DNA of 59,586 nucleotides, taken from positions 33,982 to 93,567 of the forward strand of contig NZ_RYFF01000020.1 in assembly GCF_004138165.1 (NCBI RefSeq). The letters run 5' to 3'. Origin of the DNA: Candidatus Chloroploca sp. Khr17. GTDB lineage: Bacteria > Chloroflexota > Chloroflexia > Chloroflexales > Chloroflexaceae. Position 1 is the stretch's first letter. The number at the start of each line of letters is the position of its first letter. Positions 20,241 through 59,586 of the stretch are shown one piece after another. A program made the position numbers and the translations under genes. The notes beneath the pieces are model-generated. The model was not told where the DNA came from. It saw only the letters and a program-made list of their open reading frames with translations, and did not search any database.

Positions 20241-23200
20241 ATGACACGGATGACCTCGTATGCGCTTGGGATCACGATGGTGGGCTTGATCGGCCTGCTG
20301 GTAAGCCTGGGAACCGCACTTGGGGCGGCATCGAGTCGTAGCGGGACTCAAGCCTTTGCGCTAGCCTCAGGTATACGAGCGCCCCTCTCTCCTGCCCCTA
20401 TCGGGACGCCCATCGCTGTATCGCACGGTGTGGCGGATACGACGTTGCCGGATCTGGTGATTACGGCGCTTAATCTGACGCCATCCGACCCTGGCGAGGG
20501 AGGTACTGCCGATATTGAGGTGGTGGTCAAAAATCAGGGCACCGCCGCAACGTCGGGCCGCTTCACTATCTATCTCTATGTTGAACCGACCGATGAACCG
20601 CCAACTGAGCAGACTGAGTATACGACCTTTGCTGGCTATGCGCTGACGTTGCCCCCCGGGGGGACGTTTAGCTTTACCCGGTTTGACCAGCAATTTACGC
20701 GCACACCGCCGACGGTCTATGCCTGGGTTGATCCGCCATGGGAAAATTTCATTACCGAGTTAAATGAAGCAAATAATCTCTTTCCACAGGTTGCTACTGG
20801 GGTTGATACCTTTGAAGATGATGATACGTGTGTTCAGGCGAAACCCATTCTAACCGATGGGACGCCACAGAGTCGCAATTTCTTTCCGAATTCGGGGCGT
20901 GAACGTGATGTTGATTGGGTGACGTTCAATGCGGTCGGTGGTGTCACCTATGCGGTCGAAGCGAGTCCGACCGGCGTTGATGCTGATCCAATTATTGAAC
21001 TCTACAGTACCTGTACAGGGGCACCGAGTTTTAGCAATAAAGTCATTACCGAATTCACTGCCCCTGCCGATGGCCCGATCTTTTTGCGGGTTCTTAATAA
21101 CAAGACCGACGCTGGGCCTGATCATCCTTACACGCTTCAGGTAACGAACGATAGCGCCTGCCCGAATTATTTCGAGCCAAATAATAGTGCCGCTACCGCT
21201 GGCGATTTGCCGCTTGCGACCGTGCAAACTCACAGCTTTTGCAAGCCTGCCGATCACGACTGGGTACGCCTGGCGGTTGAGGCGGGGGCCAGTTATCGTG
21301 TGGTTGCGACGAACGTCGGGCCACGAGCGAACGCGATCCTTGAACTCTATCGTACGCTTGAGGCGGCAACGAGTGCGGCAAGCGGGGCTACCATCGAGTT
21401 TATTGCGGCAGAAACCGGCCATGTCTATCTCAAAGCGGCCCAGGTTGAGCCTGAGGTTGCTGGTAGTGGCACTGAATATACCCTGCGCGCCGAGCGTCTG
21501 AGTGCCTCGGGGTGTACGCCGGATAGCTTTGAAGATGACGATACGCTTGAACAGGCCGGTTCAATTGCGGCTGATGGAACCACCCAGACGCGCAATGTCT
21601 GCCCTGAAGGCGATCTGGATTGGATCAGTTTTACGGCCAATGCGGGAACGACCTATACCATCGAGACGCTGAATCTGGGTGAAGCGGCTGATACCGTGAT
21701 GTGTCTGCATACCAGCACTGGTGAACAGATCGCGTGTGATGATGATGGCGGCACCGGCAAAGCCTCGCGCCTGAGCTTTGAACCGCCCGTGAATGGCAGC
21801 TATCTGTTGCAGATCAAGGATTTCTCGCCAACTGTTGCGGGTGATCTGACCAACTACGATCTCAAGGTGACACAACGCATTTGTCAGCCCGATGTCTTTG
21901 AGGATGATAATAGCCGTGATAGTGCGCGGGTCGTTGTTGTTGGAAGCGCAGCAACCAACCGCAACTTCTGCCCGGCAGGTGATGAAGACTGGATCGCCTT
22001 TGTCGCTGACGAAGGCAAAAATTATCTGGTCGATGCGATTGCGCTCGGTGCCGAAGCCGATACGCTCGTTGAGTTGTACGACGCCAACCAGGTCTTGCTC
22101 GCGCTCAATGACGATTTTACCCCCGGTACCAGTTCGCAGGTGAGTCTGGCCGAGGCTCGTGCAGGCAACTATTTTGTCCGGGTACGCCAGTATAATCCGA
22201 GCTACCAGGGCATCGGCACCGAATATTCGTTGCGTGTCCGCGAAGGTACTGCGGTACCTCCGCCGACGCCTTCCCCTGGCCCAACCCAGGGACCCTCGCA
22301 ACCCCCAGGGGAGACCGACGTGCGGACGTTGATCCTCTTCAACGAGACGCGTTTTGGGCAGATCCATAGTGTCGTCGAGGCCACTGAAGTTTTGACGCGC
22401 CTTCAGGCTTTAGCGCAACATCCGCAGGTGAGCGGCGAGCTTGTTTTGCTTGACGATAATGCCCAGGTTCAGGCTGCTTATGCCGCCTGGACGGCCGATC
22501 TTGGCAATGTCGAAAAAGCGAATCAGGTGACGGCCGCCATTCGTGCGGTTGTTCTGACCTATCAGCAACAGCGGAGTGGCCTCGCATATCTGGTGCTGGT
22601 TGGCGATGATCGGGCGCTTCCGATGCGGCGCATCTTCGATACCACCCCACGCTCATCAGAACGAACCTATCCGCATGTCAGTACGAACAATCCCGCCGGA
22701 GTGGCCCTCAAGGAGAACCACTATCTCACCGACGACTACTTTTCAGATCGCGAGCCAGCCGAGGTTAACGGGCGCGAGCTCTTCATCCCTGATCTCGCCA
22801 CCGGACGCCTAGTTGAAACGCCTGCCGAGATCATCGCTCAGCTCGACGCCTTTCTCGCACGCCAGCGCACCACAGTGACCAATACCTTGATCACTGGTTA
22901 CGATTTTGTGCAGGATCTTGCCGCGGCCGATTGCGACGACTGGCGAGCCGATCTGGGCATTCCCCGCATTGATTGCACGCTGATCGGCGATACCTGGACG
23001 GGCGATCAACTGCGTGCGTTGCAACCACGCACAACGTCGCCGTTTAATATTCAAATCTTCAATGGTCACGGAACCCACTATGCCCACGGGGTACCGGTGG
23101 GCAATGCGTTGCGCGCCAACGAGGTTGCCGAGGGCACCGCCGATCTACGTGGTGGCCTGATCTATTCGCCCGCCTGTCATGCTGGACTCAATTTGCCCCC

Positions 23201-24395
23201 GGCCAATGAAACGAACCCGCTTGATCTGCCGCAGGCCTTTGCCGGTCGCGGGGCCAGTTATATTGGCAATACCGGCTATGGCTGGGGTATGCGCAGTGCC
23301 GTCGGTCTCTCGGAACGCATGATCCGGCTCTATACGCAAGAACTGCTCAAAGGCACGCGGGCGAGCATGGGCCAGGCGCTGGCGACAGCAAAAAGCCTCT
23401 ATTTTCAGCAGGGCCAGTCTTTTTCCAGTTATGACGAAAAGGTGATGCAGCAACTGGTCTTTTATGGCTTGCCGATGTATGAAATCGAGACCGGGGCGGT
23501 GCTCTCGGGCCCGGGCAATGAATTCCCCGGGGTCGGGTTCACCCCGATCCTGCCGGGTGGCGGCGCCGCACTGATGAGCAATGGCTCAGTCTTGACCGGC
23601 TCGGTGGCGATTGACTTTCGCAACGCCGAGAATCTTGCGCTGTCAGAGACCGACGATGGCGGCTATTATGCGTTGAATGGTTCGGTGCAGACGGTACCGG
23701 GCTTGCCAGTGCAGCCGTTGCACTTTGGCAACGTGACGGCCCCCAACCTGGAGGCTCGCGGAGTCTTGTTGCTCGAGGCGACCTATCAGGAAGCCGAGCC
23801 GTTCGATCCGCTCATTGCGGCCCCCTTCAACGAATATCAACCCGATAATGAGCCTGGCGAGCTGGCCCAGGCCCGTGGGCTCTTCCCGCTTGTCCCAGTC
23901 TCGATCCAGCGCCATAACCAAACGTCGAGCCTGGTAACGCAACTTGGCCAGTATGATGCGGATCTGGGATCTTTGCGCCTGCTGAACGACGTCAATGCCG
24001 AAATCTACTACAGCCTCTCAGAGGAGCAGTTTTCACGCGAAACGACCGTCATTGACGGCATTACCCGTGTTGGCACTCCTCAGGTCGAAATTAAAGTTGG
24101 TACTGTTGAAGTTGCCGGGATCGAACGAGTTGTCTTGTCGTATATTCAAGACATCAACCAGGCCGCCCGCCAACTGCAATCAATGGATCTCACCTACGAT
24201 CCACGCTCACAAAAATGGGTTGGCTCGTTCCAGGGTGACACCAACTCGCGCTATCTCGTTCAGATCGTTGACAAGGCGGGCAAGATCACCGTTGCCGCCA
24301 ACAAAGGCCAGTATTACACTCCGGGCCTCGTGACTGCCGCACCGGATACGTCGTGTACCGGCCGTTGTGTGTTCCTCCCGCTGGTGAGTCGTTGA
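20241..24395 (+). CDS. Giant secreted protein. It has a signal peptide, a CARDB-like domain, five tandem PPC-like beta-sandwich domains, and a C-terminal clan CD (caspase/gingipain/CHAT-like) cysteine peptidase domain. Its C-terminus is ...CVFLPLVSR.
   Basis: AGGAGA Shine-Dalgarno sequence then ATG. The His-Gly ... Ala-Cys dyad is present (FNGHGTHYAHG ... GGLIYSPACHAG). The repeated PPC blocks each begin with FEDDDT/FEPNNS/FEDDNS. Confidence 0.8.
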   Translation: MTRMTSYALGITMVGLIGLLVSLGTALGAASSRSGTQAFALASGIRAPLSPAPIGTPIAVSHGVADTTLPDLVITALNLTPSDPGEGGTADIEVVVKNQGTAATSGRFTIYLYVEPTDEPPTEQTEYTTFAGYALTLPPGGTFSFTRFDQQFTRTPPTVYAWVDPPWENFITELNEANNLFPQVATGVDTFEDDDTCVQAKPILTDGTPQSRNFFPNSGRERDVDWVTFNAVGGVTYAVEASPTGVDADPIIELYSTCTGAPSFSNKVITEFTAPADGPIFLRVLNNKTDAGPDHPYTLQVTNDSACPNYFEPNNSAATAGDLPLATVQTHSFCKPADHDWVRLAVEAGASYRVVATNVGPRANAILELYRTLEAATSAASGATIEFIAAETGHVYLKAAQVEPEVAGSGTEYTLRAERLSASGCTPDSFEDDDTLEQAGSIAADGTTQTRNVCPEGDLDWISFTANAGTTYTIETLNLGEAADTVMCLHTSTGEQIACDDDGGTGKASRLSFEPPVNGSYLLQIKDFSPTVAGDLTNYDLKVTQRICQPDVFEDDNSRDSARVVVVGSAATNRNFCPAGDEDWIAFVADEGKNYLVDAIALGAEADTLVELYDANQVLLALNDDFTPGTSSQVSLAEARAGNYFVRVRQYNPSYQGIGTEYSLRVREGTAVPPPTPSPGPTQGPSQPPGETDVRTLILFNETRFGQIHSVVEATEVLTRLQALAQHPQVSGELVLLDDNAQVQAAYAAWTADLGNVEKANQVTAAIRAVVLTYQQQRSGLAYLVLVGDDRALPMRRIFDTTPRSSERTYPHVSTNNPAGVALKENHYLTDDYFSDREPAEVNGRELFIPDLATGRLVETPAEIIAQLDAFLARQRTTVTNTLITGYDFVQDLAAADCDDWRADLGIPRIDCTLIGDTWTGDQLRALQPRTTSPFNIQIFNGHGTHYAHGVPVGNALRANEVAEGTADLRGGLIYSPACHAGLNLPPANETNPLDLPQAFAGRGASYIGNTGYGWGMRSAVGLSERMIRLYTQELLKGTRASMGQALATAKSLYFQQGQSFSSYDEKVMQQLVFYGLPMYEIETGAVLSGPGNEFPGVGFTPILPGGGAALMSNGSVLTGSVAIDFRNAENLALSETDDGGYYALNGSVQTVPGLPVQPLHFGNVTAPNLEARGVLLLEATYQEAEPFDPLIAAPFNEYQPDNEPGELAQARGLFPLVPVSIQRHNQTSSLVTQLGQYDADLGSLRLLNDVNAEIYYSLSEEQFSRETTVIDGITRVGTPQVEIKVGTVEVAGIERVVLSYIQDINQAARQLQSMDLTYDPRSQKWVGSFQGDTNSRYLVQIVDKAGKITVAANKGQYYTPGLVTAAPDTSCTGRCVFLPLVSR

Positions 24396-24424
24396 CCTAA
24401 GCTTTGTGACAAAGGGTGACTGTT

Positions 24425-25918
24425 ATGCGTATGTTATTCACGGCCGTGCTGGTCTTTGCCGTCGTTGTGCTCGTTGCGACGACGCGCTATCCAGCCGAAG
24501 CTCAGGGAACCTTGAGCGCCAGTACCAGTTTCAACTACCAGGGTGTGCTGACGACTGATGGAGCACCAGCCAGTGGAAGCTTCGATCTGCGCTTCATTCT
24601 CTACACTGCTGCCACCGGCGGCTCGCAAGTTGGTGCGAGTCTTTTGCGCGAGGATGTCACGGTCAACCGTGGGCTCTTTGTGGTAGCGCTTGATTTTGGA
24701 GATGTCTTTGATGGCGACCCGCGTTTTCTCGAAATTGCGGTGCGCCAGGGTGGTTCCACGGGTGAGTTTACGATCCTTTCGCCCCGCCAGGAACTGACCA
24801 GCGTGCCGATGGCGATCTTTAGCCAGAATAGCGTCAACAGCCAGAATAGCGTCAACAGCCAGAATAGTGTCACGAGCGAAAGCACCAATGCTTTGCGTGA
24901 GCAACCCATCGCCGAGACTGCGCCAACCAGCGGCCAGGTCTTGAAGTGGAACGGGACAGCCTGGTCACCGGCGGCTGACAATAATACAACCTACAGCGCT
25001 AGTACCGGGTTATCGCTTGCAGGCACCACCTTTAGTGTCAACTTTGGTGGCAATGGCAGCTCGAGCCTCATAGCCCGGGCGGATCACACCCATCTTGGCT
25101 CATTGTGGCGCGGTGATGTTGGGTTCACCGCGCTGTGGGTCGAAAACCAGTCGACGGTGAGTGGCGCTTCGGGGGTGGTCGGCATCAGTGTCGCGGCGAA
25201 CGGCTTGAGTGGGCGGAGCACGTCGGGCAACGGCGTGAATGCGGTCAGCACGTCGGGGAATGGGGTGAATGCCAGCAGTTCCACAGGTACCGGTGTGCGT
25301 GGCGTCAGTTCGGCTGACAATAGCGTCGGGGTCTGGGGTCGCAATAGTTCCGGGGGATGGGGTGGCTATTTCGAGGGTCGTGTCACCGTGGTGGGCACCT
25401 TGAGCAAGTCGGGCGGCTCGTTCTTGATTGATCATCCGCTCGATCCGGCCAATCGCTATTTGAGTCACTCGTTTGTCGAGTCGCCCGATATGATGAATGT
25501 CTACAATGGCAATGTCGTGCTTGATGCCAACGGACGCGCCGAGGTCACGTTGCCCGACTATTTCGAGGCGCTCAATATCGAGTACCGCTATCAGTTGACG
25601 CCGATTGGCGGCGCGGCCCCCAATCTGCATATTGCCGAAGAGATCGTTGACAACCACTTTGTGATTGCCGGGGGTTCAGCGGGGCTCAAGGTCTCGTGGC
25701 AGGTGACGGGCATTCGCAATGACCCGTGGGCACGCGACAACCGGATCATTGTTGAGCAGGAAAAGATCCCGGCCGAACAGGGCACCTTCCTCTATCCAGG
25801 GGCGAATCCTGACGTGACAGTACAGCCGCAAACAACGCCTGGCGAGCCAGGGCCAATGGTCCCGGCTTCATCTGGTACGACGGTAGATGTCCCTGCGCCT
25901 GCTGATGTGTCCCGCTAG
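24425..25918 (+). CDS. Secreted hypothetical protein with short peptide repeats (SQNSVN x3; SGNGVNA x2) and a conserved-looking C-terminal domain of unknown function.
   Basis: N-terminal signal MRMLFTAVLVFAVVVLVATTRYPAEA. An 18-bp DNA tandem repeat lies at 24826-24879. No recognisable catalytic motifs. Confidence 0.6.
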   Translation: MRMLFTAVLVFAVVVLVATTRYPAEAQGTLSASTSFNYQGVLTTDGAPASGSFDLRFILYTAATGGSQVGASLLREDVTVNRGLFVVALDFGDVFDGDPRFLEIAVRQGGSTGEFTILSPRQELTSVPMAIFSQNSVNSQNSVNSQNSVTSESTNALREQPIAETAPTSGQVLKWNGTAWSPAADNNTTYSASTGLSLAGTTFSVNFGGNGSSSLIARADHTHLGSLWRGDVGFTALWVENQSTVSGASGVVGISVAANGLSGRSTSGNGVNAVSTSGNGVNASSSTGTGVRGVSSADNSVGVWGRNSSGGWGGYFEGRVTVVGTLSKSGGSFLIDHPLDPANRYLSHSFVESPDMMNVYNGNVVLDANGRAEVTLPDYFEALNIEYRYQLTPIGGAAPNLHIAEEIVDNHFVIAGGSAGLKVSWQVTGIRNDPWARDNRIIVEQEKIPAEQGTFLYPGANPDVTVQPQTTPGEPGPMVPASSGTTVDVPAPADVSR

Positions 25919-25937
25919 CGATGGAAAGGCAAGCCTC

Positions 25938-28157
25938 ATGCAACGCACATCGCTTTTCGGGGTGATTATTGGTGGCTTGTTGCTCGTGCTGACGATCACG
26001 ATGGTGGCGGCCCAGGCCGGTTTTGGCTTGCCGTGGGTAGCGGTCAGTGGTGGCGGCGGCACGAGTAGCAGCGGCTCGTTTGCGGTTCAAGGTTCGGTTG
26101 CATATGACAGTAGCCCACCCCTGAGCAGTGGCGTCTACACGCTGACCGGCGGTTTCTGGCCCGGCCTCAATGACGAGGCCCCGATGTTGAGTGCCGTCGA
26201 GCCCACGGCAGCGCGCAGTGTGGTGCCAGTTGCGTTGGCGCTGACGGGCAACTATTTTCAAGTTGGGGCGACCGTGACGCTCGGCACGACGGCGCTGGAA
26301 AATGTGACGACGATCAGCGCCTCGCGCATCGAAGCGGTGATCCCCGCCGGGGTAGCTGCCGGGGTCTACGCGCTTGAGGTGCGCAACCCCGACGGGCAGA
26401 GTGTCACGCTTGATGATGCCTTTACCGTCGAATTGCCCAACCTGCGCATTTTGCAAGTCCAACCTGATCAGGGTGCCAATCAGCAACCCGTCGAGATTGT
26501 CATTGCCGGCGAGGATTTCTCGCCAGCGGCTGAGGTTCGGCTTGGTGAAACGCCGCTGACCGTCATCCACGATAGCACGACCCGCATGCGCGCAACGGTG
26601 CCGGCTGGACTTGACCCGCAGGCCTATCCATTGACCGTGATCACGCCCGGGGTCGCTCAGGCAACGCTTGAGAATGCCTATACCGTCGTGGTACAGGCTT
26701 CAGCGGGGGCCGACAATTTTGAGCCAGACAATACCTGTGCGACCGCAAAAACGATTAGCATTGACGGCGTCGCCCAGGCGCGCACGTTTCATCGTACCGA
26801 AGATGTTGACTGGGTCGCCTTCAGCGCCGAAGCAGGACGGCGCTATCTACTGGTAGCTCGCCCACCCGCAGGTTCCCCCGCCAGTCTTGCGGTCGAACTG
26901 TATGATCGGTGCGAGAGCGACCCAACAGGTGGGCAGAATAACACCTTTAGCAACGGCGTCAGCATCTCGTTTGATGCTGCAATCACAGGCACGATCTACC
27001 TCAAGGTGATCAACCGCGATCCAAGCATCTTCGGATCAGAGGTCGCGTACGACCTCTCGGTGCGCGATCTCACGACGATCACCACCGCTGAGGCGCGAGG
27101 TGCAGTGATCATTGTTGCTGGCAAGTTGCGCGACAATGATGATGTGCAACAGCAGATCCACGGGGTCGCACGCAATGCCTATCAACTCTTCCGCGCCAGC
27201 GGGTATGACGACGATCATATTCAGGTACTGGCGACTGATCCAACGCTGGATGGGTACGATGCCCCGGCCACGCTCACGAACCTGCGCAACGCGATCACCA
27301 GCTGGGCGCGTGAACGGGTCGTCTCGAGTAGCCCCCTGACCATCTACATGGTTGGCCATGGTGACGAAAATCGTTTCTATGTTGATGAGACTGCGGGGCA
27401 GCAGCGTCTCGAACCCGAGCAACTCAACGAGTGGCTGAATCAACTCGAAACAGCCCGCCCCGGACTCAAGGTCAATCTGATCATCGAAGCCTGTTTCGCC
27501 GGCAGCTTCATTCTCGACCCGGGCAGCCTCAGCAAAGTCGGGCGGGTGGTCATCGCCTCATCGCCTGCCGACAACGTGGCCTATGCCTCGCCCGAGGGGG
27601 CCTATTTCTCGGATACCTTCCTTGCGTCACTCGCCTCATACAGTCTCTACGAGAGCTTTCTTGACGGCAAAGCGATTGCCCGTGCGACCTATCCCGACCA
27701 GATCGCCTGGCTGGACGATAACGGGAATCGGGTGCCGAACGAAGCCGCCGACGGGCAAGAAGCGCAGCAGCGGAGTTTTGCGCTTGCAACCCTGAGTGAC
27801 GATCTCAACTTCCGCCCGCTCATTGTCGAAGCGACCTTTGTGCGCACCGAGGGCAGCAATGGTACCATCAGTGCGGTGGTACGCGACGATCATGGCGTCG
27901 AAGAGGTCTTTGCCCAGATCTTCCCACCCTCATACCAACCACCCGATCCACAGTCAGGGCTGGTCACGGTAGCCGTACCCTTTGTCACCCTGACCCCGCT
28001 GGGCAATGATCGGTACAGCGTAAGCTACGACGGCTTCACCGAAGAAGGTGACTATCGCCTTGTCATCCAGGCCCGCGACAATGACGGATCCAATGCCTTG
28101 CCCGCTATTGCCACCACGGGCGGGCAGCGGGTCTATTTGCCATTGACGATCAGGTAG
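25938..28157 (+). CDS. Secreted legumain-like (family C13, clan CD) cysteine peptidase. It has a signal peptide, two IPT/TIG-like domains, a PPC domain, and a C-terminal Ig-like region. Its C-terminus is ...VYLPLTIR.
   Basis: Legumain signature blocks IYMVGHGDENRFYVDE (His) and NLIIEACFAGSF (Cys; compare legumain EACESGS). PPC block NFEPDNTCATAKTI...DVDWVAFSAEAGRRYLL. Confidence 0.75.
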   Translation: MQRTSLFGVIIGGLLLVLTITMVAAQAGFGLPWVAVSGGGGTSSSGSFAVQGSVAYDSSPPLSSGVYTLTGGFWPGLNDEAPMLSAVEPTAARSVVPVALALTGNYFQVGATVTLGTTALENVTTISASRIEAVIPAGVAAGVYALEVRNPDGQSVTLDDAFTVELPNLRILQVQPDQGANQQPVEIVIAGEDFSPAAEVRLGETPLTVIHDSTTRMRATVPAGLDPQAYPLTVITPGVAQATLENAYTVVVQASAGADNFEPDNTCATAKTISIDGVAQARTFHRTEDVDWVAFSAEAGRRYLLVARPPAGSPASLAVELYDRCESDPTGGQNNTFSNGVSISFDAAITGTIYLKVINRDPSIFGSEVAYDLSVRDLTTITTAEARGAVIIVAGKLRDNDDVQQQIHGVARNAYQLFRASGYDDDHIQVLATDPTLDGYDAPATLTNLRNAITSWARERVVSSSPLTIYMVGHGDENRFYVDETAGQQRLEPEQLNEWLNQLETARPGLKVNLIIEACFAGSFILDPGSLSKVGRVVIASSPADNVAYASPEGAYFSDTFLASLASYSLYESFLDGKAIARATYPDQIAWLDDNGNRVPNEAADGQEAQQRSFALATLSDDLNFRPLIVEATFVRTEGSNGTISAVVRDDHGVEEVFAQIFPPSYQPPDPQSGLVTVAVPFVTLTPLGNDRYSVSYDGFTEEGDYRLVIQARDNDGSNALPAIATTGGQRVYLPLTIR

Positions 28158-28181
28158 GGGCACGGCGGTGCCATGACCCAA

Positions 28182-28193
28182 CGGAAGAATTGG
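28182..28193 (+). promoter_or_regulatory. Candidate extended -10 element (TGgTATAAT). A hairpin at 28248-28282 follows in the 5' leader of the membrane-protein gene.
   Basis: aattggtataatagag, followed by tgtgtgctcgtgg-ctctg-ccacgagcacgcaca. Confidence 0.3.
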
Positions 28194-28299
28194 TATAATA
28201 GAGCCATGGCGTTCGCACCCCTTACGCGGGGATGGAAAAGGTGGTATGTGTGTGCTCGTGGCTCTGCCACGAGCACGCACATACCACCTTCACAATGAT

Positions 28300-30030
28300 A
28301 TGTTCTATGCGATTGGCGTGCTTGTTCGGGCACGTTTGCAGATCACACGCAATAATCTCATCCGAAGCTCGCTCGGCAACAAAATTGGCCTGGCTTTCCT
28401 CTTGGTGTTAGGCAGCCTGGCGATGTTGGGGCTCTATAGTTTCACCCGTTTTACGGTGAGCCTTTTACGCGATCCTGAGTTCGCGGCGCTTTTGCGTGAG
28501 GCCGCCGAGACGACCCCCGGGTTGCCTACGGCGATCGCGCCGTTGCTGGCGGCTGTGCCGAGCATGATTATGCTCATAGCGCTGACCCTGCTGATCTTTT
28601 CCAGTTTTACCAGTCTGCTCAATTCCCTCTATTTGGCGGGTGATCTTGATATGTTGCTGGTCGCGCCGGTGCCGATGCGGGCGGTCTTTGTGGTGAAGTT
28701 TTTTGGTGGTTTGCTCACGCAGTATCTCATCCTCTTTGTGCTGCTCGCCCCCGTGCTCGTTGGCTATGGGCATGGGATGGCCTACGGGTTTTTCTATCTC
28801 GTCAGTGTCTTGGTAGCCTTGCTCGTGGTGCCTTTTTTGCCGGCGGGGTTGGGGGCGATGCTGGTGATGGGTGTGGTTCGCATCATCCCCGCCCGTCGCG
28901 CCCGCGAGTTGGTGAGCATCCTGGGCGGGCTCATCGGGGTGACGTTCTTTCTCTTGTCGCAGTTCAGTCGACAATTCATCGCTTCAGTTGCTGGCCCCGA
29001 TACACTTGCCCTGCTGTTGCTCCTTGATATGCCGCTGTTGCCCTCGACCTGGGCAGGCCGTGCGCTCGTGGCGTCCGGCGAAGGTCAGTGGCTGACTCTG
29101 CTCGGGTATGGTTCGCTCTTTCTGGGCACGTCGCTGGCTGTTTTTGCCGCCTGTCTGGTGCTGGCTGAACGACTCTACTATGATGGCTGGAGCAACCTCG
29201 CCAATCAGGGGGGCAAGCTACGGGCGCGCAAGGCGATCGAGCGGAACGCCTGGCTGCCGGGGCGCACCCTGGTCGCGCGGCTCCTCCCGAGTGAAGCCCG
29301 GGCGCTGCTCGCCAAAGATCTGCGGCTCTTTTTTCGCGATTTGCGCAATCTACAGGCGCTCATCTTTCCGCTTGCGCTCGCCGGGATCTGGACGTTCCAG
29401 GCGCTGACCACGCCAAATACGCTTGAGTCCCCCGCCGTCGCGTGGGCGCTCCCATTTGTGCAACTGCTCAGTGCTGGCATTGCTTTTTTCATCTGTCTCA
29501 GCATTTCAAGCGTGCTTGCCGGTACCGGGATCAGCCGCGAGGGCAAGGCCTTCTGGCTCCTCAAACTTGCCCCGATCAGCGCCAGCAGGCTCTTGCTTGG
29601 CAAGATGACCCTGGCCTTCCTGCCCTTTCCGGTGATCGGGACGGCCTTTCTGTTGATTCTGGCGCTGGTTGGGCATCAATCGCCTGGCATCTTCGTGCAG
29701 CAGTGGGTTCTCTTGATGCTCGTAGGGCTCGGCTGCGCCGCCTTTGGCATCGGCCTCGGCGCGGCGTTCCCCCGGCTCGACTGGGAAAATCCACAGCAAC
29801 AGGCGACCTGGCAGAGCGGGTGCCTCAGCACGATCTTCTACCCGCTCTACCTCGGGTTGATGCTGCTGCTCGTCGCGGGTAGCGGGTCGCTCGGTGTGGT
29901 GCTTGGCGGCGGCGTCGCCGGCTTTGGCATCCAGCTCACTGGCTGGTCGGCTGCCGCGATCGTTACGCTGGGTGTGATCTGGAGTGGTCTGAAGATCGGG
30001 GTAAAAGGGTTAGACCGGATCGAATTGTAG
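28300..30030 (+). CDS. Polytopic integral membrane protein of about 577 aa with at least 10 predicted TM helices. It is possibly an ABC-2 or putative-ABC-exporter-type permease. No ATPase partner is adjacent.
   Basis: Long hydrophobic helices throughout. Start set at the ATG after the leader hairpin; the ORF track starts at 28246. Confidence 0.6.
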   Translation: MFYAIGVLVRARLQITRNNLIRSSLGNKIGLAFLLVLGSLAMLGLYSFTRFTVSLLRDPEFAALLREAAETTPGLPTAIAPLLAAVPSMIMLIALTLLIFSSFTSLLNSLYLAGDLDMLLVAPVPMRAVFVVKFFGGLLTQYLILFVLLAPVLVGYGHGMAYGFFYLVSVLVALLVVPFLPAGLGAMLVMGVVRIIPARRARELVSILGGLIGVTFFLLSQFSRQFIASVAGPDTLALLLLLDMPLLPSTWAGRALVASGEGQWLTLLGYGSLFLGTSLAVFAACLVLAERLYYDGWSNLANQGGKLRARKAIERNAWLPGRTLVARLLPSEARALLAKDLRLFFRDLRNLQALIFPLALAGIWTFQALTTPNTLESPAVAWALPFVQLLSAGIAFFICLSISSVLAGTGISREGKAFWLLKLAPISASRLLLGKMTLAFLPFPVIGTAFLLILALVGHQSPGIFVQQWVLLMLVGLGCAAFGIGLGAAFPRLDWENPQQQATWQSGCLSTIFYPLYLGLMLLLVAGSGSLGVVLGGGVAGFGIQLTGWSAAAIVTLGVIWSGLKIGVKGLDRIEL

Positions 30031-30090
30031 CGTCGCATTTCGCATGGCCCACAAGCCAGTGACGCCGCGAGCAACCGGGCGGGCACCCGT

Positions 30091-30126
30091 CAGACCTCAC
30101 AGGTCTTGCAGACCTGTGAGGTCTCG
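30091..30126. terminator. Palindromic hairpin of the R1 family (agacctcacaggtct-tgc-agacctgtgaggtct), about 60 nt after the membrane-protein gene.
   Basis: 15-bp perfect stem. The same core recurs at 55021-55060. Confidence 0.5.
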
Positions 30127-30185
30127 CCCGTGTTACCCATACCGGATTATGTACTGAAAACCATAAGTAGTTTGGAACTAAATCT

Positions 30186-30290
30186 CCCGGTAGCGCCGCC
30201 GACCACGAAGAACCCTCACGAATATACGAAGCCAGGCTTTGTGACGCAATTATTCGTTGTTTCGTGGCCCCAATTCGTGGACGGCAACAC
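30186..30290. repeat. Copy A of a ~100-bp nested palindromic repeat (R2 family: CCGCCGACCACGAA...TTCGTGGACGG).
   Basis: Outer arms ccgccgaccacgaa / ttcgtggacgg. Related copies at 31866-31970, 59217-59312 and a half-copy at 53915-53960. Confidence 0.8.
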
Positions 30291-30321
30291 CCTTTGCGCC
30301 TTTGCGCCTTTGCGTCAAATC
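30291..30321. repeat. R3 repeat: CCTTTGCGCC(TTTGCGCC)TTTGCGTCAAA.
   Basis: Also at 56213-56251 and in reverse complement at 54985-55005. Confidence 0.7.
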
Positions 30322-30324
30322 ATC

Positions 30325-31791
30325 TCAGAGACTCGTCACCAAGCCGGGTCGTACGATCACATTCTGCCAGACTTGCTGGCGATCATTCTGCGTTACGACG
30401 ACCGTGTAGCTCCCTGGGGGCAATTCAACGGCCCCAAACCAGCCATCGGCGCTGGCGGTAAGATCGCGCAGCCAGGTGCCTTCGTGGATGAGCGTAACCC
30501 GCGCATCGGGCGTGAGCACGCCGTCAATGGCGGCCATGCCTTGCAGATGGCCGGCGGTCGGGGCGACGATCCAGGGCCAGTCGGGGGCGCGGGCTGGTTG
30601 GGCAAAGACGGTGGCGCGCAGTTGATCCATAAAAGCCCGGCGCGACTCGTCATTGCTGCCGGCAAAGGCCCCTGCATACGAAAAGAAGGCGACCCCAGAG
30701 AGCACGCGCCCTTGCTCATCAGGCGTCAATGCACGGGCAACCTGGCTGATATTCTGCTCGGGCGTATTAAGCCACGAGCCGATCCCAGCGACAATCGTGC
30801 GCCGTCCAGTATTGGCGCGATCAAAAGCCAGCCAGCCATCGTACCACTCACGTGAACGCGGCACGCCTTCGGCAAAATAGTGCATCGGGATCGCCACGTC
30901 AATGATGCCCTCGGCCAACCAGGCAGGCCAATCTTGAAAAACTGTGCTATAGGCCGACGAACGCCCCCAGTTGCCATCGTTGCCCAGGCTCCCCCAGGTA
31001 ATCGTGGCTGCACTCACCTCGATGGATGGCTTGATCGCCTTGGCCCGTAGATAGAGCCGTCGCGCCAGTTCGGTGACACGATCCCGCCGCCACTGGCTCC
31101 ACGCCGGATCACTCGGCTCTGGCCGGCTGTTGAGCGGGCGGCCCGTCGCCCGGTTGAAGCGCTCGACGCTCACCTGATTGTAGCCATAGCTTTGCCCCCC
31201 AAAACGAATATAATCCCAGTGGAGGCCATCGAGCGTAGGGTACGCCCGCAGCAGATGTTCGACCACCCGCTCGGTATGGATAATCGCCTCGGGATGCCCA
31301 AAATCAAAATCGCCGATCTGCTGCCCCGCATACGTCGCCGTCGTCCAGCGGGCCGTGCCCTGCGCCCGTGGGCCGTGGGCAGTACAGACATGATCCGGAT
31401 GGCCCCAGAGCCGATCCGAGGTACGACAGACAACCGAAACGACCAGCCATGCATGAACGCGCAACCCCTCTTCGTGGGCGCGAGCCAGCAAATAGCCAAG
31501 CGGATCAAACTCGGCGGCAGGGGCGAGGCGCGGATCGGCCGCCCGGGGTTCGATGGCATTGTTATACCAGGCGTCCCCGTGGCGACGCACCTGCACAATG
31601 ATCGTATTGGCCCCGGCCCGCTTCACATTCGCCACCAACTCATCGACCTGCGGATGATTATGGAAACCGGGATTGAGACTATCAACCCAAAAGGCCCGCA
31701 TCTGCTGCACCGGCTCTTGTGCCTGTACCCCCGGGGTGGGCAACGCCGTGATCAGCAGCACGAACACGAGCAACGAAAGAATGAATCGCAT
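30325..31791 (-). CDS. Secreted glycoside-hydrolase-like family 10 (GHL10/YngK-type) protein.
   Basis: N-terminal signal MRFILSLLVFVLLITALPTPGVQA. MRAFWVD ... NTIIVQVRRHGDAWYNNAIEP blocks typical of GHL10 proteins. The ORF track's TTG at 31812 is an alternative start. Confidence 0.65.
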   Translation of the reverse strand: MRFILSLLVFVLLITALPTPGVQAQEPVQQMRAFWVDSLNPGFHNHPQVDELVANVKRAGANTIIVQVRRHGDAWYNNAIEPRAADPRLAPAAEFDPLGYLLARAHEEGLRVHAWLVVSVVCRTSDRLWGHPDHVCTAHGPRAQGTARWTTATYAGQQIGDFDFGHPEAIIHTERVVEHLLRAYPTLDGLHWDYIRFGGQSYGYNQVSVERFNRATGRPLNSRPEPSDPAWSQWRRDRVTELARRLYLRAKAIKPSIEVSAATITWGSLGNDGNWGRSSAYSTVFQDWPAWLAEGIIDVAIPMHYFAEGVPRSREWYDGWLAFDRANTGRRTIVAGIGSWLNTPEQNISQVARALTPDEQGRVLSGVAFFSYAGAFAGSNDESRRAFMDQLRATVFAQPARAPDWPWIVAPTAGHLQGMAAIDGVLTPDARVTLIHEGTWLRDLTASADGWFGAVELPPGSYTVVVTQNDRQQVWQNVIVRPGLVTSL

Positions 31792-31865
31792 AGAGATTAG
31801 CCTTTGCGCCAAATCATTACAAAACGTACGTTACAGGCTACTTACTGGTCTGTCAACAGAGTTTT

Positions 31866-31970
31866 CCGATAGCACCGCCGACCACGAATACTGATCACGA
31901 AGAAACGAATATGGGCGTTGCGGTGCGGTATTCGTTTCTTCGTGCCCCCAATTCGTGGACGGCTGAGGAC
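31866..31970. repeat. Copy B of the R2 nested palindromic repeat.
   Basis: caccgccgaccacgaatactgatcacgaagaaacgaata...tattcgtttcttcgtgcccccaattcgtggacgg. Confidence 0.8.
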
Positions 31971-32000
31971 GCCAGAAAACTTAATTCACAAACTACGTAC

Positions 32001-34742
32001 CTACCCGGTTGAACCGAGCCCATCCGCAATCGCGTTGACCGTCAGCAACAGCCGGGTGAGCAAGGTGGCGTCGACTTCAGTGCCTGTGGCCCGCTTGGTG
32101 CGCCACTCACCGAGCAACGTGACTTGCTGACGGTGCAACAGGCGTAGCCCCGGCGTACGAACCTGGATCATGGCATGGACGTTGGGCCGTCGCTGGTCCA
32201 GCGGTGCGCCATAGATCTCTTCCAGAAGCGTGACGGTGCGGTCGTACTCGGTCAAAATGATCTTCTCCAAGCGTTCGCGTAGTGCGCGCTCTTCGACAAG
32301 ATCGCTGTACCAGCCCATAACTTCAGTATCGGCGGTAGCGACGCTGGTAGCTGCGTTGCTGAGGATGTAGTGCAGGGGTGCCCAGGTAATCAGGTGTTCG
32401 CTCAGCGCCGCAAAAGCCGCTTGATCTTCACTTTTCAACCGTTCGAGGGCGCTTCCAACTCCATACCACCCAGGCAGAAAAAAGCGCGCCTGGCTCCAAC
32501 TAAAGACCCACGGGATCGCGCGCAAGTCAGCCAGGGTAGCCTGACCAGACCGACGGGCCGGGCGCGAGCCAATCCGGCTCTCTTCCAACACATCGACGGG
32601 CGTGGCCTGACGATAAAAGCGCAGGAATCCGTCACTACTCAGCAGCGTCGTATAGGCCTCACGACTCCAAGCGGCTAGGCGATCCATCGCCGGTTCGAGC
32701 GGATGGGTTGTCGCCGTACCGAACCGCTCACGCATTGTGGTACGGGTGACACCAGCCAGAAACAGCTCAAGGTTGTAGCTTGCCGTGACGGGGTTGGCAT
32801 ATTTTTGCGCAATCGTCTCACCCTGTTCGGTAATGCGCACATCGCCACCAACTGATCCGGCGGGTAGCGCCTTGAGGAAGCGATGCGTCGGCCCGGCCCC
32901 TCGACTGATCGTGCCACCGCGCCCGTGGAAAAAGCGAATCCGCACGCCCCGCGCCAGGCCGACGGCAGCGAGGGCCGCCTGAGCACGATAGAGCGCCCAC
33001 AGGCTCGCGATCAGGCCCCCATCTTTGTTACTGTCACTATAGCCAATCATCACCTGCTGGATAAGATCCGCCGCGCCGGTCTGGCGCCGTTGCTCTTCCA
33101 GACTGCGCTGGGTCATTGGATGATCGAGAAAGGCTGCAAGAATGCTCGGGCTGCGCTCGAGATCTTCAATCGTCTCGAAGAGGGGCACCACCGACAGCGG
33201 GCAGGCAAGACCATCCGGGGTCGCAACGAGCAAGCCGGTCTCACGCGCAAAGAGATAGACGGTGAGCAAGTCAGCGACATTGCGGGTCATGCTGACGATA
33301 AGCCCGCCCAGACCCGCCGCGCCATAGGTGTGCAAGGCAATCCGGATCGCCCGATAACTACTGAGGATCATATCGGCTTCGGTGCCGACGCCTGCTCGCG
33401 CACGGGTAAAAGGCCGTGGCGAAACGAGTTCGCGGGTCAACAGATCCATCCGACGTGCGACATCCCAGGTTGTCACATCATGATCAGCAAAACCGGCGGC
33501 AGCGAGCAATTGCGCAAGCGCACGGTCGTGAACCGCACTATTCTGGCGAATGTCGAGCCGCGCGAGGTGGAAGCCAAAGGTATGAACATTACGGATAACT
33601 GGTGTCACCAGATGCGCCACGAGGCTCCCTGCCCCGATCATCTCCAGGGACTGCGCGAGGATCTGCAGGTCGCGCACCAGTTCCTCGGCGCGCTGATAGA
33701 CGTGCGCCGCAGGAGCATCAGGGAGGCGTGCGAGCATCAGATTGATCCACTGACGCCACGGCTCATTGGGATTACGGGCAAGCGCGTGCGCCCCTCGTTC
33801 GCCCAATTGGGAGGCGGCGATCGTCATCTGATCGACCAAGAGCTGCGGGGCAGCCTGCAACTGATCAGAGAGACTCAAGTAGCTCGCCAGATCGCTCAAC
33901 TGGTCGTGGAGCAGACCAAGCGCCTGGCGGCGGAGCTCTGCAAGTGTCTCGGTTGTCACCTCGGCGGTCACCAGCGGATGCCCATCACGGTCGCCACCGA
34001 CCCAGGTACCAAACTGGAGCGACGGAAGGGCCTCGGGAGCCTGGAGCAGCGTCGGATTGAAACCAGCTGCTTGCCAAGCCTGGCGCACCCGTGCATCGAG
34101 CATAGGAAGAACGGAGGGAAAAACCGTCCGCAGATAATGAATAATATTGCGTCGCTCTGAAGCAACATCCGGCTTCGCGAGAAAGATCTCGCCGGTACGC
34201 CAGAGCGCAATCAGACGAATCACCGCCTCGTCACGGATCGCCTGCTGCTCATAGGGGGTCCAGTGCGGATTAGCGCGCTTGAGCAACAGCAGATAGAGAG
34301 CACGGTGATGTTCAAGCACCGTCGCACGTTTCGCCTCAGTCGGATGCGCCGTCAGCACAATCTCAACGCGCATCGTTGGCAACGCCGCAGCCAGCGCCGC
34401 CTCATCGAGGCCGTGGGCCTGTAACTGCGCCAACGCCTCACCCCAAAGCGCAGGCACCGCCGCGAGACCAGCGCGGGTCTCGGTCGTACGGCGATACTGT
34501 ACAGCAGCGCGTTGTTCAACCATACTCAACAACTGAAACGCGATCGAAAGCGCCTGCACCAACCGCTCGGGCGGCAAATCGGCGCGAGGAGGATCATCCT
34601 GCGGCGGCGTAATCCAGGGCAACACCCTAGCAAGATCCGGCTCACCAGAGTCAAGCAACGCCTCACGCAGACAATCCATCAGAAAAGAAAGCTCGTCGGA
34701 AAACGTCGCCGGATCAACGGTCGACAAATTCACCAGGGTCAT
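32001..34742 (-). CDS. ppc: Phosphoenolpyruvate carboxylase.
   Basis: About 913 aa. PEPC signature blocks VLTAHPTE and FHGRGGTISRGAGP. GGGAGGA Shine-Dalgarno sequence 7 nt before the ATG at 34742. Confidence 0.93.
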   Translation of the reverse strand: MTLVNLSTVDPATFSDELSFLMDCLREALLDSGEPDLARVLPWITPPQDDPPRADLPPERLVQALSIAFQLLSMVEQRAAVQYRRTTETRAGLAAVPALWGEALAQLQAHGLDEAALAAALPTMRVEIVLTAHPTEAKRATVLEHHRALYLLLLKRANPHWTPYEQQAIRDEAVIRLIALWRTGEIFLAKPDVASERRNIIHYLRTVFPSVLPMLDARVRQAWQAAGFNPTLLQAPEALPSLQFGTWVGGDRDGHPLVTAEVTTETLAELRRQALGLLHDQLSDLASYLSLSDQLQAAPQLLVDQMTIAASQLGERGAHALARNPNEPWRQWINLMLARLPDAPAAHVYQRAEELVRDLQILAQSLEMIGAGSLVAHLVTPVIRNVHTFGFHLARLDIRQNSAVHDRALAQLLAAAGFADHDVTTWDVARRMDLLTRELVSPRPFTRARAGVGTEADMILSSYRAIRIALHTYGAAGLGGLIVSMTRNVADLLTVYLFARETGLLVATPDGLACPLSVVPLFETIEDLERSPSILAAFLDHPMTQRSLEEQRRQTGAADLIQQVMIGYSDSNKDGGLIASLWALYRAQAALAAVGLARGVRIRFFHGRGGTISRGAGPTHRFLKALPAGSVGGDVRITEQGETIAQKYANPVTASYNLELFLAGVTRTTMRERFGTATTHPLEPAMDRLAAWSREAYTTLLSSDGFLRFYRQATPVDVLEESRIGSRPARRSGQATLADLRAIPWVFSWSQARFFLPGWYGVGSALERLKSEDQAAFAALSEHLITWAPLHYILSNAATSVATADTEVMGWYSDLVEERALRERLEKIILTEYDRTVTLLEEIYGAPLDQRRPNVHAMIQVRTPGLRLLHRQQVTLLGEWRTKRATGTEVDATLLTRLLLTVNAIADGLGSTG

Positions 34743-34981
34743 AGGCACATCCTCCCGCAGTCAAACCGAGCGCAAAGGCACATCTCTCACGCTATGATGC
34801 CACATTCTGGTAGTTCATGCCAGGGGCATTTGCCTGGTGGGAGGGGCGGCAGGCACGAACAGAAGCTGACATCGCTGAGGTTGGAAGAGACCTGTTTCGT
34901 CGATTCGGCGCTGCACGAGAGTGAGTTGGATCTGGGACGAGTCATTCAAAGCCGAGCCAACGCAACAGTTGTTACGCTCCA

Positions 34982-38410: not shown

Positions 38411-38977
38411 TTACTTCTTACGCACAATCTTTGGTCTGCCCTGGAAACGTCCGAGCCGCCGCGCCTGTTCGATATGCTGTTCGTTGCGCTCTTGCATCTG
38501 TGCAGCTTCAAAATCGCGCAGGATCTCGTCGGGTTTCTGTAGTGGTTCGGCATGGGGCATAAACATGCTGCTGAGTGCTGCCAACCCCACGAGACCATCA
38601 ACTGTCTTCACCGCAGTGTAGGCTTTGGCCTGATTGAACTTGCCTTTGAACCAATTTAGTTTAGATATTTGATTCGGTGTGGGGGATTTTGGCTGATTCG
38701 AGCCACGAACAGTAGGGTGCTGCAGACCTCCTCGCACGTTGCGTGTTGGCAACGTACTGCTTGGCTTCGCCTTAACTTGTTTTAGTGGTGGCGTCCGAAC
38801 CTTTGATGTTGGGTGCTTCGCCAGTTTGCGTGTCGCTTGCTGCAACTTGACTGGTGTAACCCGCTGCCGGGCGGTTGTTGAAGCAACTGGTTGTAGAGCA
38901 CGTACTGGCGGCGTAGGCTTTGGGGTATTGGGGTTGCTCACACCTGCCCCACTTTTAGTACTCCGATTAACCTTCAT
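38411..38977 (-). CDS. Basic Lys/Pro/Thr-rich protein of about 188 aa. It is a probable paralogue of the preceding gene (shared KVNRS N-terminus).
   Basis: Its ATG overlaps the TGA stop of the upstream ATPase gene (ATGA), which indicates translational coupling. Confidence 0.5.
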   Translation of the reverse strand: MKVNRSTKSGAGVSNPNTPKPTPPVRALQPVASTTARQRVTPVKLQQATRKLAKHPTSKVRTPPLKQVKAKPSSTLPTRNVRGGLQHPTVRGSNQPKSPTPNQISKLNWFKGKFNQAKAYTAVKTVDGLVGLAALSSMFMPHAEPLQKPDEILRDFEAAQMQERNEQHIEQARRLGRFQGRPKIVRKK

Positions 38978-41787: not shown

Positions 41788-41806
41788 ACGGGTGCCTTCC
41801 TGATCA

Positions 41807-45865: not shown

Positions 45866-45866
45866 G

Positions 45867-53793: not shown

Positions 53794-53914
53794 CCCTGCT
53801 TGAAAGCTGAGTGCGAAACGGTTCTCGGCTGCGCAAACACGTATAATGCAGTGCTAGGGGACTTGTTTGGGGGCCGCGCCCAAGCGACAATCACAAATCT
53901 GCAATCTACAATCC

Positions 53915-53960
53915 CCCTGCCCCTATTCGCTTATTCGTGAGGGTTCTTCGTGGTCGGCGG
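53915..53960. repeat. Half-copy (left arm, reverse orientation) of the R2 palindromic repeat.
   Basis: attcgtgagggttcttcgtggtcggcgg is the reverse complement of ccgccgaccacgaagaaccctcacgaat in copy A. Confidence 0.6.
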
Positions 53961-54152
53961 TGCTCCCAGAAAACTTTTGTTACGCACTACTACCTTGTCC
54001 CGCCTAAGCATAGTGTCTAATTCTTAACGGAATCTGCCCCTCTGCTGATGCGTTTCTGCTGTATACTTGCAGGGTAGAAAAGCACGTCTTGCCCTGCCCT
54101 TCGGCAGGGTGCTTCTCACTTCTGGCTCCGGTGTTGAGCGTCGCTTCCCAGT

Positions 54153-58630: not shown

Positions 58631-59216
58631 TTGTCGCAATCTGGCTCACCTTGGCCGATGATGAGCAACCCGACAGATACCATCTACGTCAACCGTGGTG
58701 GGCCATACTTCTTTCCAGGAACCGAAGATGCCATCCAGAACTCCTGGAATATGTGGTGGACGGCGTTTGCTGTGCGCAATGGCTTGAATCCCTTTGAAAC
58801 ACCCCTGCTTTACTACCCCGAGGGCGTAGAGCTCTATCTACAAACAGTCAATTACGCGACAACGGTGCTCGTTTTACCCTTATGCGTGCGGAGCATCCGT
58901 CGCTGCTCAATCAGATCGCCCATCAGCAGCCAATCCTCGCTGGCTATGTCGCCAGGGCGCCTCAGCGTTATGATGCGATGAACTATGTCCCACTGATCAA
59001 TGGTTTGGGGCGTATGAAAGCCTGGCCTGACACTAACATTGTGGCAATGGATCAGGCAAGTTATCAAGCACAACAATGCTTTTATCGCCTACGCCACGTT
59101 GTTATAGCCGAACATCTGGTGATAGCAGACGAACGAGCCCAGGTGATGGAGGAGCACCACAGCCTTGTCGGAGGAGCGCCGCGAAGCATCGCTACCGTCG
59201 AGACGCCCGAGACTCG
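58631..59216 (+). pseudogene. Possible frameshifted or truncated gene remnant. Two overlapping ORFs of 116 and 176 aa run into a copy of the R2 repeat.
   Basis: The frame changes at about 58880. The downstream ORF reads through the repeat element. No recognisable family. Confidence 0.2.
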
Positions 59217-59586
59217 GTCGCACCGCCGACCACGAATACTGATCACGAATAAACGAATAGGGGCGGTGCGCTCTTCGTTGCTTCGTGGCCCCATTCGTGG
59301 TCGGCGGCGCGTTCATCGCCACGTCCAGGGTCACGCTCGCCCCGGCGGTGAGGTTCGGCACGACCTGCTGTGCCCGGATCACCGAGTGACTGGGACGCGG
59401 TTCGGCGGGTGAGGGGTCCGCCGCCCCCGCCTCGTCGAAGTGCTTGGCGAGCAGCGAGAAGTCGCGCAGGTTGATCACCCCATCGCCGCTGAAGTCGGCC
59501 CGCCCATCGTAGCCCGTACTGCCGCTGCTCCGCCCGAAGGTGCTCGCGAGCACCGAGAAGTCGGGCAACGAGACGCGATTGTCATT
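59089..59586 (-). CDS. C-terminal fragment of a gene that starts beyond the right window edge. It encodes dockerin-like Ca-binding repeats, and its 3' end reads through the R2 repeat.
   Basis: The frame is open to the window edge. Two dockerin-like segments: LPDFSVLASTFG and DFSGDGVINLRDFSLLAKHF. Confidence 0.3.
   Translation of the reverse strand, partial: NDNRVSLPDFSVLASTFGRSSGSTGYDGRADFSGDGVINLRDFSLLAKHFDEAGAADPSPAEPRPSHSVIRAQQVVPNLTAGASVTLDVAMNAPPTTNGATKQRRAHRPYSFIRDQYSWSAVRPSLGRLDGSDASRRSSDKAVVLLHHLGSFVCYHQMFGYNNVA
59217..59312. repeat. Copy D of the R2 nested palindromic repeat.
   Basis: caccgccgaccacgaatactgatcacgaataaacgaata...cttcgtggccccattcgtggtcggcgg. Confidence 0.8.

Follow-up and report, generated by a model that had tools for sequence, protein, structure and literature searches.

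R2, a nested-palindrome repeat family of Candidatus Chloroploca that is probably a non-autonomous MITE-type element

The window analysed here is a stretch of 59,586 nucleotides from Candidatus Chloroploca sp. Khr17 (contig NZ_RYFF01000020.1). Its left end is occupied by a plus-strand ORF (34-5646) for a giant secreted-type protein of 1870 aa with Kelch, beta-helix, CARDB, and PPC domains, which supplies most of the direct-repeat families of the window (D2-D13); these are protein-coding repeats, unrelated to the family described below. Near the middle, a GHL10 gene (30325-31791, minus strand; Pfam PF02638) lies between a PEP carboxylase (PEPC) gene and an ABC gene, and its spacer with the latter is convergent. 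Further on, a minus-strand run (38974-52735) encodes a HerA/FtsK-like ATPase, a Band-7 protein, a ThiF (E1-like) protein, two large JAB-domain proteins, and an RWD/TPR protein, and looks like a ubiquitin-like conjugation or anti-phage-type island. A hicA-hicB toxin-antitoxin pair (53098-53793, plus strand) and a sigma-factor gene come next, and the right edge of the window holds the remnants of two genes.

A palindromic repeat family, R2, is present between these genes as four copies, c1 to c4 (Table 1). At the positions where the initial annotation had placed them (30186-30290, 31866-31970, 59217-59312, and, for a half-copy, 53915-53960), the sequence matches its description, and the GHL10 gene is indeed bracketed by two of them, c1 and c2. 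The unit is, nevertheless, larger than the ~100 bp first proposed: the complete element measures ~150 bp, with additional outer inverted arms around the reported core. The half-copy c4, located between hicB, which lies immediately upstream, and the sigma-factor gene, is also a half element at the place given, with a larger extent (53912-53989 instead of 53915-53960). Its outer arm is matched by nhmmer at 53962-53992, as is the solo outer-arm module next to c2 (31821-31845). The lost outer arm of c1 has its place taken by an unrelated (CGCAAAGG)n module (30289-30324). A covariance model of R2, built from 14 copies, scores c2 at 104 bits, c1 at 94.7, c3 at 90.3, and c4 at 28, and finds no further copy in the window. 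The core 14-mer CCGCCGACCACGAA, searched with up to two mismatches on both strands, gives seven matches against 0.76 +/- 0.85 expected (none of 100 shuffles reaches seven), and a de novo repeat search independently recovers the family (direct families D14, D16, and D17; inverted pairs I1-I3 and I5). All R2 copies except one are intergenic.

Table 1. Features of the R2 family and of other short repeats; positions refer to the window unless a locus is named.
Feature	Position	Strand	Description
c2, complete R2 element	31846..31995	minus (better-folding strand)	150 bp, sole complete one in the window; outer arm, core arm, loop, core arm, outer arm
c2 left flanking 5-mer CTTAC	31841..31845		putative target-site duplication; four of five positions equal to 31996-32000
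c2 right flanking 5-mer CGTAC	31996..32000		adjoins the PEPC stop codon (32001-32003)
Solo outer-arm module	31820..31840	minus	TAGCCTGTAACGTACGTTTTG on the minus strand; 5 nt from the c2 end
c1	30168..30288	minus	one outer arm and the complete core hairpin; second outer arm gone
c1 flanking 5-mer ATAAG	30163-30167
c3	59216..59312 (about)	minus	core-only hairpin with perfect CCGCCGACCACGAA/TTCGTGGTCGGCGG arms, without outer arms
c4	53912..53989	plus	half element with a loop remnant, a single core arm, and a single outer arm
c4 flanking 5-mer CTACC	53990-53994
c2 flanks		minus	GTACG / GTAAG
L028 flanks			ATGAG / ATGAA
L031 flanks			ATGAG / ATGAG
L016 flanks			CTCAG / CTCAC, nested insert removed
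Second family, window	30289-30324, 31800-31819, 54982-55006, 56225-56249		(CGCAAAGG)2-3 then TCAAATCATC
Second family, elsewhere	L003 6569-6604, 969-997; L031 4810-4836, 6947-6977; L040 399-425; L072 9959-9994		(CGCAAAGG)n-TCAAATCATC
Third family	~5715-5990; L016 7562-7765; L040 2196-2272		~205-280 bp, ends AGRRCGATTGCATC / GATGCAATCG, internal GGGCACCCGCAAGGGGTGCCCCTACA palindromes
Array in third family	5810-5970		expanded 12-nt tandem array (GGGTGCCYTGGC)n
Fourth repeat	30092-30124, 55025-55057; L049 2186-2223		33-nt perfect palindrome AGACCTCACAGGTCT-TGC-AGACCTGTGAGGTCT
Hairpin near c3	59176-59196; L016 7948-7968		GACGG-YAGCGA-WGCW-TCGC
Hairpins I8, I9, I11, I13	10456-10510, 13478-13537, 14935-14982, 28238-28290		near-perfect and unique; 23-29 bp stems, 2-3 nt loops
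Spacer hairpin, mongolica	L072 11469-11524		perfect 27-bp stem TTGCAAGGCCCGCACCACTGGCAAGCC / GGCTTGCCAGTGGTGCGGGCCTTGCAA

Each outer arm consists of TAGTYTGTGAAC, 4-5 variable nucleotides (N4), GTTTYCCGG, and TAGCR, with the complement on the opposite side. The core arm follows, CCGCCGACCACGAA-N7-CACGAA-N4-CGAA, with three CACGAA/TTCGTG motifs per arm, then a loop of ~17 nt and the inverted arms. Terminal inverted repeats (TAGTYTGTGAAC...GTTCACAGACTA) and fully inverted arms are found in c2, in the L028 and L031 copies, and in the reconstructed L016 copy. Of the two 7-nt internal loops, which lie on opposite sides, one is TACTGAT or GAACCCT and the other GCCCCAA, and R2, therefore, has a polarity. 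The best-conserved part is the internal core rather than the extreme termini; in a four-way alignment of the window copies, the left core is invariant. The complete element is self-complementary over nearly its whole length and has no coding capacity, the ORFs that overlap copies being spurious or read-through.

The nested hairpin predicted by the initial annotation is borne out by folding. Complete c2, folded as minus-strand RNA, reaches -70.4 kcal/mol (z = -6.7), and as plus-strand DNA -34.3 kcal/mol (z = -5.5), values equalled by none of 200 shuffles in either case. Folded on their own, the arms are no more stable than shuffles (z = -0.02, +1.51, and +1.17), so that the hairpin needs both arms and R2 contains no REP unit, unlike a classical REP.

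The family extends beyond the window. A core-pattern scan covering one genome per species, with many chance matches in GC-rich coding DNA, gave, among the matches listed, true copies in Ca. Chloroploca asiatica (L016, L031, and L040) and Ca. C. mongolica (L003, L028, and L049), and a diverged form in an uncultured Chloroflexia genome (L020 and L026). Three more diverged clades (L065-L071) were obtained from other Chloroflexia contigs by a metagenome scan. The closeness of some copies is illustrated by c2 and the mongolica L028 copy, which are 90.6% identical over 149 bp and non-syntenic. When the asiatica and mongolica loci are compared with the window by BLAST, only R2 and several other short repeat families match, and flanks never do, which places the outside copies at non-orthologous sites. 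Copies confined to the window, without conserved termini or target-site duplications, would have counted against the initial interpretation; copies were found in two named Chloroploca species and in metagenomes, with conserved termini and 5-nt direct repeats resembling target-site duplications. Neither the viral contigs nor the plasmid collection contains an R2-like sequence, so nothing indicates a phage or plasmid origin. The Rfam search of the whole window at the gathering threshold returned no family, and a permissive search around c1 and c2 returned only miRNA-precursor and CRISPR noise (E above 2). Searches of the literature on Chloroploca repeats and on RAYT or MITE in Chloroflexi retrieved no description of R2, and the Chloroploca genome paper gives none.

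Comparison with a sister species offers presence/absence information. The GHL10 protein is 96% identical to its counterpart in Candidatus Chloroploca sp. M-50 (C. mongolica), in which a 21-kb locus (L072) is colinear with positions 20220-34848 of the window (14.6 kb) at 90-92% nucleotide identity; synteny stops at 34848, between PEPC and the 38974-52735 island. The window, therefore, belongs to a sister species of C. mongolica, a filamentous anoxygenic phototroph of the Chloroflexales. Both GHL10-flanking copies, c1 and c2, are missing from L072. Measured from the GHL10 start at 31791 in the window, the PEPC-GHL10 spacer is 209 bp long, versus 69 bp in mongolica, and the GHL10-ABC spacer is 294 bp versus 77 bp. 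The covariance model finds no R2 copy in L072 or in the loci of more distant Chloroflexaceae, and manual alignment indicates that the solo outer-arm module of the window is the orthologue of a solo module kept in the mongolica spacer (L072 9934-9957). A more distant outgroup with the same GHL10/ABC arrangement (L073) lacks c1; its spacer is just 9 bp long, and the c1 difference is, therefore, polarised as a gain. Outgroup polarisation applies to c1 only, and the c2 difference would fit either a gain in the window or a loss in mongolica. A short-read contig of 1.6 kb carrying an identical GHL10 gene breaks off inside the repeat at both ends, in the way that multi-copy repeats typically stop assemblers.

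At the c2 site, the minus strand of mongolica reads TAG-GCACG-TGGTCTGTCAAC... when empty, and that of the window TAG-GTACG-(150-bp element)-GTAAG-TAGCCTGTAAC... when filled; the 5-mer, thus, occurs once in the empty site and twice in the window. Direct 5-nt flanks, given in Table 1 on the minus strand for c2 and on the matching strand for the others, are found on all four full-length copies (c2, L028, L031, and L016), identical in four or five of the five positions, with one mismatch in three of the four pairs. The background for at least four matches in five at such spacing in the window is 0.0176 per site, and the flank statistics rest on these four copies. An extension of the inverted repeat is ruled out as the source of the 5-mers, which are direct and not inverted in all four elements. 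They co-vary within elements and follow a loose consensus, CTYAY, in either orientation relative to R2. Three of the four full-length elements adjoin another outer-arm module exactly 5 nt away, with the right-hand 5-mer in between, and part of the 5-mer signal could, hence, be a preferred context rather than a duplication. Together with two R2 elements in tandem at L031, these adjoining modules suggest that insertion is drawn towards existing element ends. The L016 copy is itself split by an unrelated, nested 205-bp inverted-repeat element, a member of the third repeat family of Table 1, with a 12-nt duplication, GTGTCGTTCGCC.

The right-edge copy c3 was initially thought to disrupt genes by insertion. 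Instead of a simple insertion, it is a truncated core lying where two gene remnants meet. On the plus strand, the ORF at 58631-58981 represents the N-terminal remainder of a predicted ~700-aa protein family (best representative P0178, 76% identity) of unassigned function and without a Pfam match. Within the pseudogene (58585-59181, plus strand), tblastn places residues 1-101 at 58585-58888 and residues 466 to ~582 at 58891-59181, so that ~360 internal codons (residues 102-465) and the last 110-120 codons are lost. Homology stops at 59181, 41 nt short of the R2 core. On the minus strand, a presumably truncated dockerin-domain ORF, for which no homologue of the fragment was detectable, reads through c3 and stops at 59089, and the GC content jumps from about 0.5 on one side of the copy to about 0.7 on the other. 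What the two genes lack does not lie beyond the repeat, which identifies the site as a rearrangement or deletion junction. Two small features were also observed in this region. The short hairpin listed in Table 1 lies beside R2 copies in two genomes, has its loop inverted between them, and may be another small palindromic module. Upstream of a radical-SAM/SPASM gene, ~129 bp (58355-58484) are absent from the 90%-identical Logan contig L080, a further small indel that separates close relatives. The contigs with homologues of this gene, L080 and L081, stop short of the c3 and c4 sites.

Multi-copy dispersal, terminal inverted repeats, 5-nt direct flanks, presence or absence between sister species, and nesting are all directly observed for R2. 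With the small size, the absence of coding capacity, and the tandem and half copies, they form the defining set of a bacterial MITE, and R2 is, in our judgement, probably a non-autonomous MITE-type DNA transposon of Chloroploca and related Chloroflexales. The MITE/REP-like, non-autonomous character proposed in the initial annotation is, thus, supported by the outside copies, the conserved termini, the 5-nt flanks, and the absence from the sister species; of the two labels then offered, MITE fits better than REP, as isolated arms form no hairpin and the flanks are direct repeats. A transposase domain was likewise said to be missing, and none occurs in 37 ORF or segment translations covering most large ORFs of the window, three large ORFs in 20241-28157 lying outside this set; R2 would, therefore, be mobilised in trans. 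The loci of 8-21 kb examined contain no autonomous partner with the same termini. We infer that a transposase encoded elsewhere in the genome recognises the inverted ends, with the triple CACGAA/TTCGTG subterminal repeats perhaps constituting its putative binding sites; the family of this enzyme and any effect of R2 on neighbouring genes would likewise be matters of inference. R2 would enter intergenic CTYAY-like sites and duplicate 5 bp, and copies would then decay through arm loss, splitting by nested repeats, and use as deletion endpoints, leaving the half and core-only forms. R2 is, in sum, a previously undescribed family of an already familiar type of bacterial repeat, with three mildly unusual traits: a subterminal repeat in triplicate, a conservation maximum that lies internally, and insertion next to existing ends.

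The second of these traits sits uneasily with a DDE-type MITE, for which an internal core as the best-conserved part is unusual, and it is one of several points in favour of the main rival reading, the REP/REPIN one. According to it, R2 is a REPIN-like or 'TIR repeat' whose movement proceeds through hairpins of single-stranded DNA and depends on a RAYT/TIRYT tyrosine (HUH) transposase (IS200/IS605 superfamily) rather than on a DDE enzyme; we consider this reading unlikely. Such an origin would suit a conserved core that is internal and not at the tips, the frequent half copies or 'singlets' (c4, c1, and L003) alongside doublet-like long hairpins, and the BIME-like mosaic of R2 with other palindromic modules. 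RAYT-like genes bracketed by long terminal inverted repeats, which themselves make up repeat families, have, moreover, been documented (PMC3733652). GTAG or GTGG stands at the outer boundary of eight of 11 outer-arm modules, and the GTAG tag defines GTAG REPs (Di Nocera et al. 2013, PMC3733652); however, this motif straddles the boundary between the flanking 5-mer and the terminus, is missing in the other three modules, and is possibly a coincidence. Also in its favour are the asymmetry of the internal loops and the better folding of the complementary strand (12 of 14 copies), but this strand asymmetry is largely an ascertainment artefact, because the collection scans demanded one exact arm and pushed divergence onto the other; only the smaller strand differences of the Chloroploca copies are free of this exact-arm bias. 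The remaining evidence argues against the REPIN reading: single arms form no stem-loop above chance, leaving no REP unit, direct 5-nt flanks are unexpected from HUH single-strand transposition, and neither the window ORFs scanned nor the loci examined revealed a Y1 (RAYT) transposase.

A second alternative, compatible with a mobile origin, is that R2 acts mainly at the RNA level, as a 3' hairpin stabilising or terminating the mRNA of the upstream gene, and that its spread and retention reflect this function. ERIC, REP/BIME, and Correia elements act as 3' hairpins in mRNA stabilisation or termination. If the better-folding strand is assumed to be the functional one, all four window copies lie just downstream of a gene on the same strand (GHL10, PEPC, the dockerin ORF, and hicB), c2 beginning 5 nt past the PEPC stop codon, and the L003, L031, and L040 copies are placed likewise; nevertheless, the orientation sample is tiny and the L028 copy lies between divergent genes. 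Long perfect hairpins routinely occur right after genes in this genome, and the mongolica GHL10/ABC spacer has a different hairpin, with a 27-bp stem, in place of c1. From these two observations, co-option of R2 as a 3' hairpin is plausible but unproven. Within the stem, G.U accounts for 20 cells and broken cells are few, although the search design, with its one exact arm, confounds the G.U excess. The covariation term is negligible (-0.72 kcal/mol), with double changes in just three pairs, there is no U-tract, and no Rfam family matches. A main role in RNA is, on balance, improbable. An intrinsic (Rho-independent) terminator, in particular, is rejected, the hairpin having no U-tract and no scan match: a terminator scan of 29900-32200 gave no site at c1 or c2, and T-runs are absent behind the hairpin on both strands. 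Nor did the scan show a promoter at the copies.

The hairpins that follow genes deserve description in their own right. Four near-perfect, unique ones (I8, I9, I11, and I13) directly follow plus-strand gene stops, carry no U-tracts, and resemble a genome-wide habit; the one at 28238-28290 is 87% conserved in mongolica (L072 13285-13337). The content of the GHL10/ABC spacer has been wholly exchanged between these ~91%-identical species, the window having other palindromic elements where mongolica has its perfect hairpin.

Three more repeat families accompany R2 in these genomes (Table 1). The second, (CGCAAAGG)n-TCAAATCATC, is placed directly against gene starts or stops and is common to all three Chloroploca genomes; in mongolica, 8 nt separate it from the downstream GHL10 ATG, whereas its window copy adjoins both c1 and the stop codon of GHL10. 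The third is the family whose L016 copy is nested inside an R2 element, and its window copy contains the expanded tandem array. One copy of the fourth, a perfect palindrome, shares the convergent spacer with c1. A much broader reading can be built on such modules, namely an undescribed, phylum-specific nested-palindrome system of filamentous Chloroflexales composed of R2, (CGCAAAGG)n, the GGGCACCC... element, and short perfect palindromes, in which an unrecognised dedicated enzyme would insert modules beside existing ends, via single-stranded hairpins and reading the triple TTCGTG, while the host would use the modules as 3'-end RNA hairpins. This is very unlikely; were it true, R2 would represent a new pairing of element and enzyme with end-targeted insertion, beyond another MITE.

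A further and likewise very unlikely reading sees R2 as a host-maintained array of double-stranded DNA sites for a protein (e.g., a nucleoid-associated or regulatory protein on the TTCGTG triplets), spread by recombination or gene conversion. It draws on the strict retention of the three CACGAA/TTCGTG motifs per arm in divergent clades whose outer arms differ, and on the intergenic placement of the copies with its single exception. Nevertheless, the cross-clade conservation of one arm came from the search pattern itself; the direct 5-nt flanks, the clean presence/absence point, the tandem copies, and the nested insertions point to insertion events; and the neighbours (PEPC, a glycosidase, a toxin-antitoxin pair, and a sigma factor) are functionally unconnected. 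An integron attC reading, raised by the two co-oriented palindromes bracketing GHL10, was rejected. An attC site is an imperfect palindrome that ends in R''/R' (RYYYAAC/GTTRRRY) and belongs to an array of co-oriented cassettes beside an integrase; the R2 ends TAGTYTGTGAAC/GTTCACAGACTA are unlike GTTRRRY, GHL10 alone is bracketed, neighbouring genes carry no more copies, the array structure is missing, and no integrase occurs in the ORFs scanned.

To our knowledge, small mobile repeats are poorly catalogued beyond Proteobacteria, Firmicutes, and Cyanobacteria. R2 and at least three co-resident repeat families show that Chloroploca genomes hold a population of miniature elements that is active or was so until recently. 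These reshape intergenic regions between ~91%-identical species, break short-read assemblies, sit right on stop codons and also in front of genes, PEPC and GHL10 among them, and mark deletion junctions. R2 is useful for annotating genomes, for telling strains or species apart, and for tracking down the responsible transposase.

MITEs that are palindromic over their whole length include ERIC/IRU (Enterobacteriaceae, ~127 bp), Correia/NEMIS (Neisseria, 100-155 bp), and RUP (Streptococcus pneumoniae). R2 shares with them a non-coding unit of 100-170 bp whose terminal inverted repeats fold it into a single long hairpin, an intergenic location often right behind stop codons, short target duplications, full-length copies beside internally deleted or half forms, and presence or absence among close relatives. 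It differs by having no sequence similarity to them, by belonging to a different phylum (Chloroflexota), by its 5-nt flanks and CTYAY preference, where Correia and RUP use TA, by three CACGAA repeats per arm with the best conservation internal, and by new copies tending to insert at a distance of 5 nt from an outer-arm module already present. The descriptions of ERIC/IRU, Correia/NEMIS, and RUP follow PMC3733652 and general knowledge. With REPs, REPINs, and BIMEs, R2 has in common extragenic palindromes, long-hairpin doublets together with singlets, a mosaic with other short repeats, a bias towards unidirectional or convergent spacers, and, perhaps, the GTAG often seen at the outer end, whereas its half-units are not self-complementary stem-loops and it has direct flanking 5-mers.

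Mu-like, Tn7-like, and Tn402-like DDE transposons make 5-bp duplications and carry several transposase-binding repeats per end. As a lead only, miniature derivatives of these resemble R2 in the 5-nt duplication, the short direct repeats within each end, and TGT near the ends, although the TGT of R2 lies 5 nt inside the tip defined by the flanks, and the ends are likened by description and not by sequence; no transposase of the Mu, Tn7, or Tn402 type was found in the window ORFs scanned. Overall, the architecture of R2 is closest to that of ERIC/IRU and Correia-type MITEs and, more distantly, to that of REPINs.
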